From NCBI RefSeq assembly GCF_003334305.1, contig NZ_QOWS01000047.1: a stretch of DNA of 7,431 nt. One strand, given 5' to 3'. Within the stretch, counting starts at the first letter, position 1; every line of letters starts with the position of its first letter. This stretch comes from Escherichia coli (GTDB lineage Bacteria; Pseudomonadota; Gammaproteobacteria; Enterobacterales; Enterobacteriaceae). Below are positions 7,053-7,431 of this stretch, one piece after another. Both the position numbers and the translations under genes were made by a program. A model generated the notes under the pieces. It saw nothing but the letters and a program-made list of their open reading frames with translations. It was not told where the DNA came from and searched no databases.

Positions 7053-7238
7053 CGTAGTTTTTCAATAGCTACACCATGTCACGTAACATGATGCCTGGAT
7101 ATTAACCAAGGAAAGATCATCAGAAGTTCACTTTTTGTACTAAATAATTCGCATTTTATGTTTAAAAATTGAGATATTCCTTATTACCTGAAGCTGTTTT
7201 TTATTGCTTATACATGATCAAATACTCCTTACATAATT

Positions 7239-7244
7239 AAGGAG
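7239..7244 (+). promoter_or_regulatory. Shine-Dalgarno for the ISAs1 transposase (AAGGAG)
   Basis: 6-nt spacer to ATG 7251. Confidence 0.6.
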
Positions 7245-7250
7245 AACAAA

Positions 7251-7431
7251 ATGGAATTTAAAAAATTGATGGAACATATTTCTATTATCCCCGATTACAG
7301 ACAAGCCTGGAAAGTGGAACATAAATTATCGGATATTCTATTGTTGACTATTTGTGCCGTTATTTCTGGTGCAGAAAGTTGGGAAGATATAGAGGATTTC
7401 GGGGAAACACATCTCGATTTCTTGAAGCAAT
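7251..7431 (+). CDS. ISAs1-family transposase (H-repeat-associated protein), N-terminal 60 codons; continues beyond the window
   Basis: ATG at 7251 with AAGGAG 6 nt upstream. The translation [60 protein letters not shown] closely matches, from memory, the N-terminus of E. coli H-rpt / ISAs1-type transposases found in Rhs elements. Absent from the ORF track because no stop falls inside the window. Confidence 0.85.
7251..7431 (+). mobile_element. H-rpt / ISAs1-family insertion sequence, left part; the left terminus probably lies within 7053-7250 but was not identified
   Basis: Presence of the transposase gene; terminal inverted repeat not identified by eye. Confidence 0.6.

Follow-up and report, generated by a model that had tools for sequence, protein, structure and literature searches.

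An ISEc1 (H-repeat) insertion sequence at the right edge of an Rhs island of Escherichia coli and its probable part in island turnover

The window analysed here, a stretch of 7,431 nucleotides of Escherichia coli DNA, ends within an insertion sequence (IS) that is ISEc1, the classical H-repeat (H-rpt) of the ISAs1 family of DDE insertion sequences, and positions 7107 to 7431 (plus strand) are the leftmost 325 bp of a copy of 1,291 bp. ISEc1/H-rpt is a long-known companion of the E. coli Rhs elements, and the feature is an ordinary one, already known and annotated, with nothing new in kind. We have high confidence in the overall reading, in which ISEc1 identity is combined with a role in the turnover of the island and with a copy that is itself probably poorly mobile. 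The IS thus described is a landmark for the right end of the variable cargo in a T6SS-linked Rhs island, to which the comparison of strains makes a modest addition: junctions that are polymorphic at the exact tips of the IS, a 10-bp duplication around a sister copy, and crossovers within the IS.

Identity and ends of the ISEc1 copy

The features of the IS copy and its remainder are as follows.
7107 to 7119, plus strand: left terminal inverted repeat, CAAGGAAAGATCA
7209 to 7237, plus strand: sigma-70-like site, TATACA-17-CATAAT, with 9 of 12 consensus positions
7225 to 7244, plus strand: hairpin CTCCTTA-CATAAT-TAAGGAG, with a 7-bp stem and a 6-nt loop
7251 to 7431, plus strand: N-terminal part of the transposase, the first 60 of 378 codons, with most of the DDE_Tnp_1_assoc domain
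7432 to 8397 (would-be coordinates beyond the window): remainder of the IS, the whole of which lies at 10607-11897 of the A7 locus (L018)

A previous sequence-only reading of the window had placed the start of an H-repeat transposase at 7251, where there is indeed an ATG, preceded by an AT-rich non-coding stretch and then AAGGAG (7239-7244), and followed by 60 codons open up to the window edge, none of which encodes a catalytic residue. This 60-codon fragment matches the NCBIfam ISAs1 model with E=1e-8 and 34.8 bits, a score that stays under the cutoff of 70 because it belongs to a fragment only. Extension past the window, which had been proposed as a check, was carried out with E. coli A7 (NZ_CP028767.1) as reference, since all 7,431 bases of the window occur there with 100% identity, strain 504838 (L001) being only 99.2% identical over the whole window. 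It gave the right end of the IS and an intact transposase ORF of 378 aa (WP_000394594.1), labelled by RefSeq "ISAs1-like element ISEc1 family transposase". The full protein, with 60 codons taken from the window and the rest from A7, reaches 417.6 bits against NF033564 (cutoff 70) over 314/314 profile positions, an end-to-end match that upholds the proposed ISAs1/H-repeat family, for which a failure to match over the full length had been named as the refuting outcome. This single ORF contains the Pfam domains DDE_Tnp_1_assoc (residues 8-94) and DDE_Tnp_1 (102-343), and the IS1380 and IS4 models score far under their cutoffs against it. Elements of the ISAs1 family have lengths of about 1.2-1.5 kb (ISfinder), and the 1,291 bp found here are bounded by homology to independent copies; the 97.9% identity over 1291/1291 nt to yhhI (H-rptB) of K-12 makes the element an isoform of ISEc1. 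It is practically inconceivable that the feature is merely an IS fragment or remnant, or a chance ORF at the window edge: the window does hold just 60 codons, with a score under the NCBIfam cutoff, but a genome identical to it contains all 1,291 bp of the element, from one end to the other and with the 378-aa ORF intact, and this complete element in A7, together with the NF033564 match and the full-length identity to yhhI, refutes such a reading.

The left end of the IS, regarded as not defined in the sequence-only reading, can be placed at 7107, that is, 54 bp past the stop codon of the cargo (7050-7052). Homology of the window with independent copies, namely yhhI of K-12 (next to rhsB) and the ydcC copies, begins only at 7106/7107 and ends after ...TCTTGCCCTG, also written ...TAATCTTGCCCTG, 1,291 bp from the left end, and alignments of the ends put the left tip at 7107 as well. 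The earlier distance of about 200 bp from the last cargo gene is therefore right for the start of the ORF, 198 bp past the TAA, and wrong for the IS itself, only 54 bp away. Members of the ISAs1 family have CAGGG ends and target duplications of 8-10 bp (ISfinder, IS1358 work). The terminal inverted repeats of this element are likewise imperfect repeats with CAGGG tips (consensus left repeat, CAGGGAAAGATCA; right end, as reverse complement, CAGGGCAAGATTA), both of them kept in all the copies compared, and a 67%-identical relative also begins with CAGGGCAAGATCA. The window's copy has a CAGGG right tip and a CAAGG left tip, through a G-to-A change at 7109, compared with CAGGG in 12/12 other copies examined, including those with the exact left flank of the window (BE2-5 and contig L015). 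About 550 genomes have the window-type junction, and in 10 of them sampled at even spacing the exact window sequence was found in 2/10 and a single mismatch in 6/10. Since the other copies carry CAGGG and the exact sequence is present in two of the ten, the A at 7109 is, as judged from these copies, a recent point mutation of a minority lineage. A recombination scar was considered as the origin of the CAAGG tip and rejected, as the same junction exists with CAGGG.

The suggested check of the terminal repeats and the target site defined the repeats, as described, and revealed no target-site duplication at the window's copy, whose flanks are GGATATTAAC and CCTGCTCACC. The 8-10-bp duplication of the family is therefore missing here, which is no argument against family membership because such a loss is expected after later replacement of a flank. 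In an O103:H2 strain, a sister copy has GCGTTAAACA, a perfect 10-bp duplication, on both sides, and therefore elements of the ISEc1 type have truly transposed. In the case of the window's copy, the mutated left tip (CAAGG) and the missing duplication indicate that it is probably poorly mobile or immobile.

Upstream of the ORF, the sigma-70-like site has to be read together with the count of such sites in the region, which is not above shuffled expectation. The hairpin at 7225-7244, with an energy of -8 kcal/mol (z = -2.97), carries the Shine-Dalgarno sequence as its 3' arm and a weak -10-like hexamer in its loop; it is absent from the 67%-identical relative, and the ISEc1 copies are too similar to each other to offer informative covariation. 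Folding of read-through transcripts in a way that blocks translation has been described for other IS, and the hairpin may, hypothetically, limit translation from read-through Rhs transcripts by sequestering the ribosome-binding site.

The Rhs island and its cargo

To the left of the IS, the following features were delimited.
6577 to 7052, plus strand: last cargo ORF, an orphan immunity-like pseudogene of 476 nt, with its TAA at 7050-7052
7053 to 7106: tail between cargo and IS, outside the IS, 54 nt
7083 to 7105: IS-like patch TAACATG(ATGC)CTGGATATTAA, colinear with the IS-internal sequence that precedes an internal IRL-like site

The island, of about 10.5 kb, lies between cusS and nfrB and contains VgrG, a DcrB-like/DUF1795 protein, a frameshifted PAAR-Rhs, small cargo ORFs and the terminal IS. 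Strain E2348/69 has an empty site, and comparison with it sets the right edge of the island about 116 bp past the right end of the IS. The IS is therefore part of the Rhs island, on the downstream side of both the core and the C-terminal tip cargo, and the annotation of the locus agrees with the reading from the letters that it directly follows the toxin/immunity cargo of an Rhs element. The disrupted state of the cargo was also correctly noticed: a frameshift affects the Rhs gene, and a 1-nt deletion in an A-run at about 6712-6719 has put the last immunity-like ORF out of frame, this ORF being intact in NRZ14408 (477 nt, 158 aa, WP_000629024.1).

Some other observations concern the genes of the island and its neighbour. 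The main PAAR-Rhs gene (window 1190-5706) is frameshifted per RefSeq in both strains examined; its mechanical ORF stops at 5515, and a DPxGL-type motif goes on from 5503 in another frame. Positions 6386-6572 match the main Rhs of NRZ14408, which is intact, at the 3' end of its C-terminal toxin domain, a match by which they can be regarded as an orphan toxin fragment derived from C-terminal displacement; the cognate immunity-like ORF comes next. The gene just past the island, nfrB, is annotated as a pseudogene with an internal stop in A7 (L018 12156-14393), and likewise in strains of the STO_Bone2 type (L007 9859-12096 and L014 4476-6713).

The tail between cargo and IS is found in NRZ14408 too, up to the same base (...GGATATTAAC, window 7106); what comes next there is a linker of 53 nt, then an orphan Rhs core and, ahead of the IS, a further orphan array. 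Because the NRZ14408 tail continues into different sequence, the boundary 7106/7107 is a true breakpoint. In a simple model, the arrangement of the window would derive from an NRZ14408-like ancestor by the loss of about 7 kb, up to the left tip of the IS. Models in which microhomology connects the linker of NRZ14408 with the IS tip were off by one base and were not adopted. The linker itself corresponds to L016 6042-6094, between the cargo tail and the orphan Rhs core.

The patch at 7083-7105 has a flank-plus-repeat score that was reached by 0/500 shuffles, and comparable IS-internal likeness was absent from the flanks of the other copies, the patch being limited to the window-type junction. 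A longer ISAs1 remnant upstream was also looked for, and positions 7000-7082 showed no IS likeness (1470/2000 shuffles score as well). The first 18 nt of the NRZ14408 linker have a gapped likeness to the left repeat of the IS (35/5,000 shuffles). The likeness of both patch and linker hints either that the events are attracted to sequences similar to the IS ends or that a very small piece of a different ISAs1 element is left there. As a source of the flank, the diverged ISAs1 element of L008 was tried, and its fit was no better.

Junctions at the IS tips and probable crossovers within the IS

At least 41% of the complete E. coli genomes have the IS as a fixed landmark of the cusS-nfrB island: the element with its nfrB-side flank is present in at least 2,222 of 5,426, and the places matching the element number a median of 5 per genome, with up to 18. 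Junctions were compared in 12 sampled copies at the nfrB locus. The right junction is constant among them, except for 71 bp missing at the right tip in two strains, but six distinct left flanks, four of them Rhs core, meet the exact tip of the IS.
Left junction type 1: window type
Left junction type 2: EDL933 type
Left junction type 3: Rhs core broken after about aa 535, four strains
Left junction type 4: Rhs core broken after about aa 635, main Rhs truncated
Left junction type 5: Rhs core broken after about aa 1027, two strains
Left junction type 6: Rhs core broken after about aa 1135, main Rhs truncated

The two strains with core broken after about aa 1027 are the ones with the 71-bp deletion, which starts from the exact right tip of the IS, as compared to all other nfrB-locus copies. 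Overall, eight distinct left junctions and several right junctions were found, and in every one the break falls exactly at the last base of the IS. Deletions that are random or driven by homology would not hit the exact tip repeatedly, and we infer that these terminal breakpoints would be the product of transposase-mediated events, either insertions or adjacent deletions. The tip-precise junctions could have arisen in place, or at other Rhs loci from which they were then imported by recombination, as a chimeric IS in C012 (see below) suggests; 12 loci are too few to give the direction or location of these events.

Side observations were made on several of these loci. The 71-bp deletion at the right terminus was seen in L007 (at 9672) and L014, both of the STO_Bone2 type. 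At the rhsE-type locus (L008 3919-6294 and L009 3919-6295), a diverged, 67%-identical ISAs1 pseudogene is followed by an ISEc1-like copy, which in L008 has the perfect 10-bp duplication GCGTTAAACA and in L009 has its right flank replaced at the exact tip. A scan of contigs with the flank returned one match, the metagenome-assembled JAEWTL010000053.1 (L015), labelled 'Bacillota bacterium', which is 98% identical to the E. coli Rhs/IS locus over 4.7 kb and probably reflects a binning error.

Crossovers inside the IS were apparent from the comparison of the window with two strains, the first with the same cargo (BE2-5) and the second with a different one (WP5).
7289 to 7305: inferred breakpoint of homologous recombination, IS positions 183-199

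Against BE2-5, the window differs at 1 site in the 1.5 kb to the left of the IS and at 2 sites within IS positions 1-140, that is, 3 differences in 1,640 nt up to position 140, compared with 34 in the remaining 1,100 nt or so and 8 in the 119 nt after these. Against WP5, there are 7 differences in IS positions 1-190, 0 in positions 190-1291 and 6 across the 2.5 kb of right flank. The sequence is thus BE2-5-like to the left of the breakpoint, as is the cargo, and WP5-like to the right, as is the nfrB flank. The window's copy of the IS looks chimeric, with a crossover at about 7289-7305, this being a comparison of three sequences in which the recombinant could be the partner and not the window. 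A second chimeric IS at the nfrB locus, with a switch point at IS positions 135-151, occurs in C012. Its sequence (L013) joins an EDL933-like left part of 135 nt to a window-like remainder, and a main Rhs that is truncated forms the left flank.

The old suggestion that H-repeats join in the rearrangement of Rhs elements, taken up by the sequence-only reading as a role in turnover, finds testable support in this comparative pattern, through left junctions that are polymorphic and exact to the tip, a deletion at the right tip and breakpoints inside the IS. The pattern suggests that the right edge of the Rhs island, where the IS lies, has been rearranged repeatedly, and that ISEc1 is not simply dead. 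In the proposed mechanism, the IS tips would be the sites of transposase-type events, at which Rhs core broken at differing codons meets the left tip. The IS body would be the first homology block to the right of the variable toxin/immunity cargo, and as such a site for crossovers during cargo exchange, and the window's own copy looks like one of these exchange recombinants.

It is unlikely that the IS is a dead and passive passenger, with the diversity of junctions and the mosaicism resulting only from the recombination and deletions that Rhs arrays undergo in general. Such arrays are known to rearrange via their own core repeats, any conserved block beside a variable region would be expected to gather crossover points, and the left tip of the window's copy is mutated. 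However, eight left and several right junctions on the exact terminal nucleotide are unlike homology-driven or random deletions, and the transposase ORFs speak against it too: none of the 13 tabulated, each of 378 aa, is disrupted, and with dN/dS at 0.07-0.2 for divergent pairs the transposase is under purifying selection. The O103:H2 copy, outside the 13 tabulated, is annotated with an internal stop.

These intact ORFs, with their low dN/dS, would also be expected from a domesticated H-repeat, a host gene long immobile whose protein is kept for a cellular or Rhs-related function. The identical right junction in at least 2,222 genomes and the missing duplication at the window's copy would fit with this history as well, as would the absence of transposition in the laboratory, where that of the E. 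coli H-rpt has never been observed (PMC3032704). Nevertheless, purifying selection is equally expected under occasional transposition or homogenisation by gene conversion, and the conservation of the terminal repeats in all copies, the perfect 10-bp duplication around the sister copy, the median of 5 and up to 18 places per genome and the tip-precise changes of the flanks make domestication quite improbable.

A more active picture can be put forward tentatively, as a possibility that we rate at somewhat less than an even chance. ISEc1 would have been active in natural E. coli populations and would shape Rhs toxin/immunity arrays: its tips would prune or rejoin orphan modules and its body would serve as the right homology arm when cargo is replaced, with the window derived from an NRZ14408-like ancestor through the loss of orphan modules amounting to about 7 kb. 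The events would be of the adjacent-deletion type, possibly drawn to sequences that resemble the left end of the IS.

Comparison with known elements

The closest known relative is ISEc1/H-rptB (yhhI) of the K-12 RhsB element, also of 1,291 bp and 97.9% identical over the full length, with which the IS shares the 378-aa ORF, the terminal repeats and the position downstream of Rhs cargo. Unlike yhhI, it resides in a vgrG-linked PAAR-Rhs island (cusS-nfrB) that K-12 lacks, and the window's copy differs in its CAAGG left tip, in MEF for MEL at the second codon pair and in its chimeric sequence. Among the founding and characterised members of the ISAs1 family are ISAs1 of Aeromonas salmonicida and IS1358 of Vibrio cholerae, both of which have been seen to transpose. 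The element resembles them in the end-to-end match to the family model, the CAGGG tips and the 10-bp duplication at the sister copy, whereas transposition of the E. coli H-rpt has not been observed (PMC3032704) and the window's copy has no duplication.

In Salmonella, an H-repeat was proposed as a mediator of recombination in the O-antigen clusters, with a model for group D2 of transposition followed by homologous recombination (PMC3715488). Like the H-repeat of the group D2 O-antigen cluster, the IS of the window sits exactly at the junction of segments of differing ancestry, but the former is a remnant in an O-antigen cluster and the latter an intact element in an Rhs toxin/immunity array. 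Finally, adjacent deletions mediated by an IS are classically described for IS1 and IS10, and the junctions found here are similar in having one flank constant, the other variable and the breakpoint at the exact terminus of the IS. In contrast to those deletions, the ISEc1 events are deduced from natural variants, and they would correspond either to intramolecular transposition or to imported junctions.
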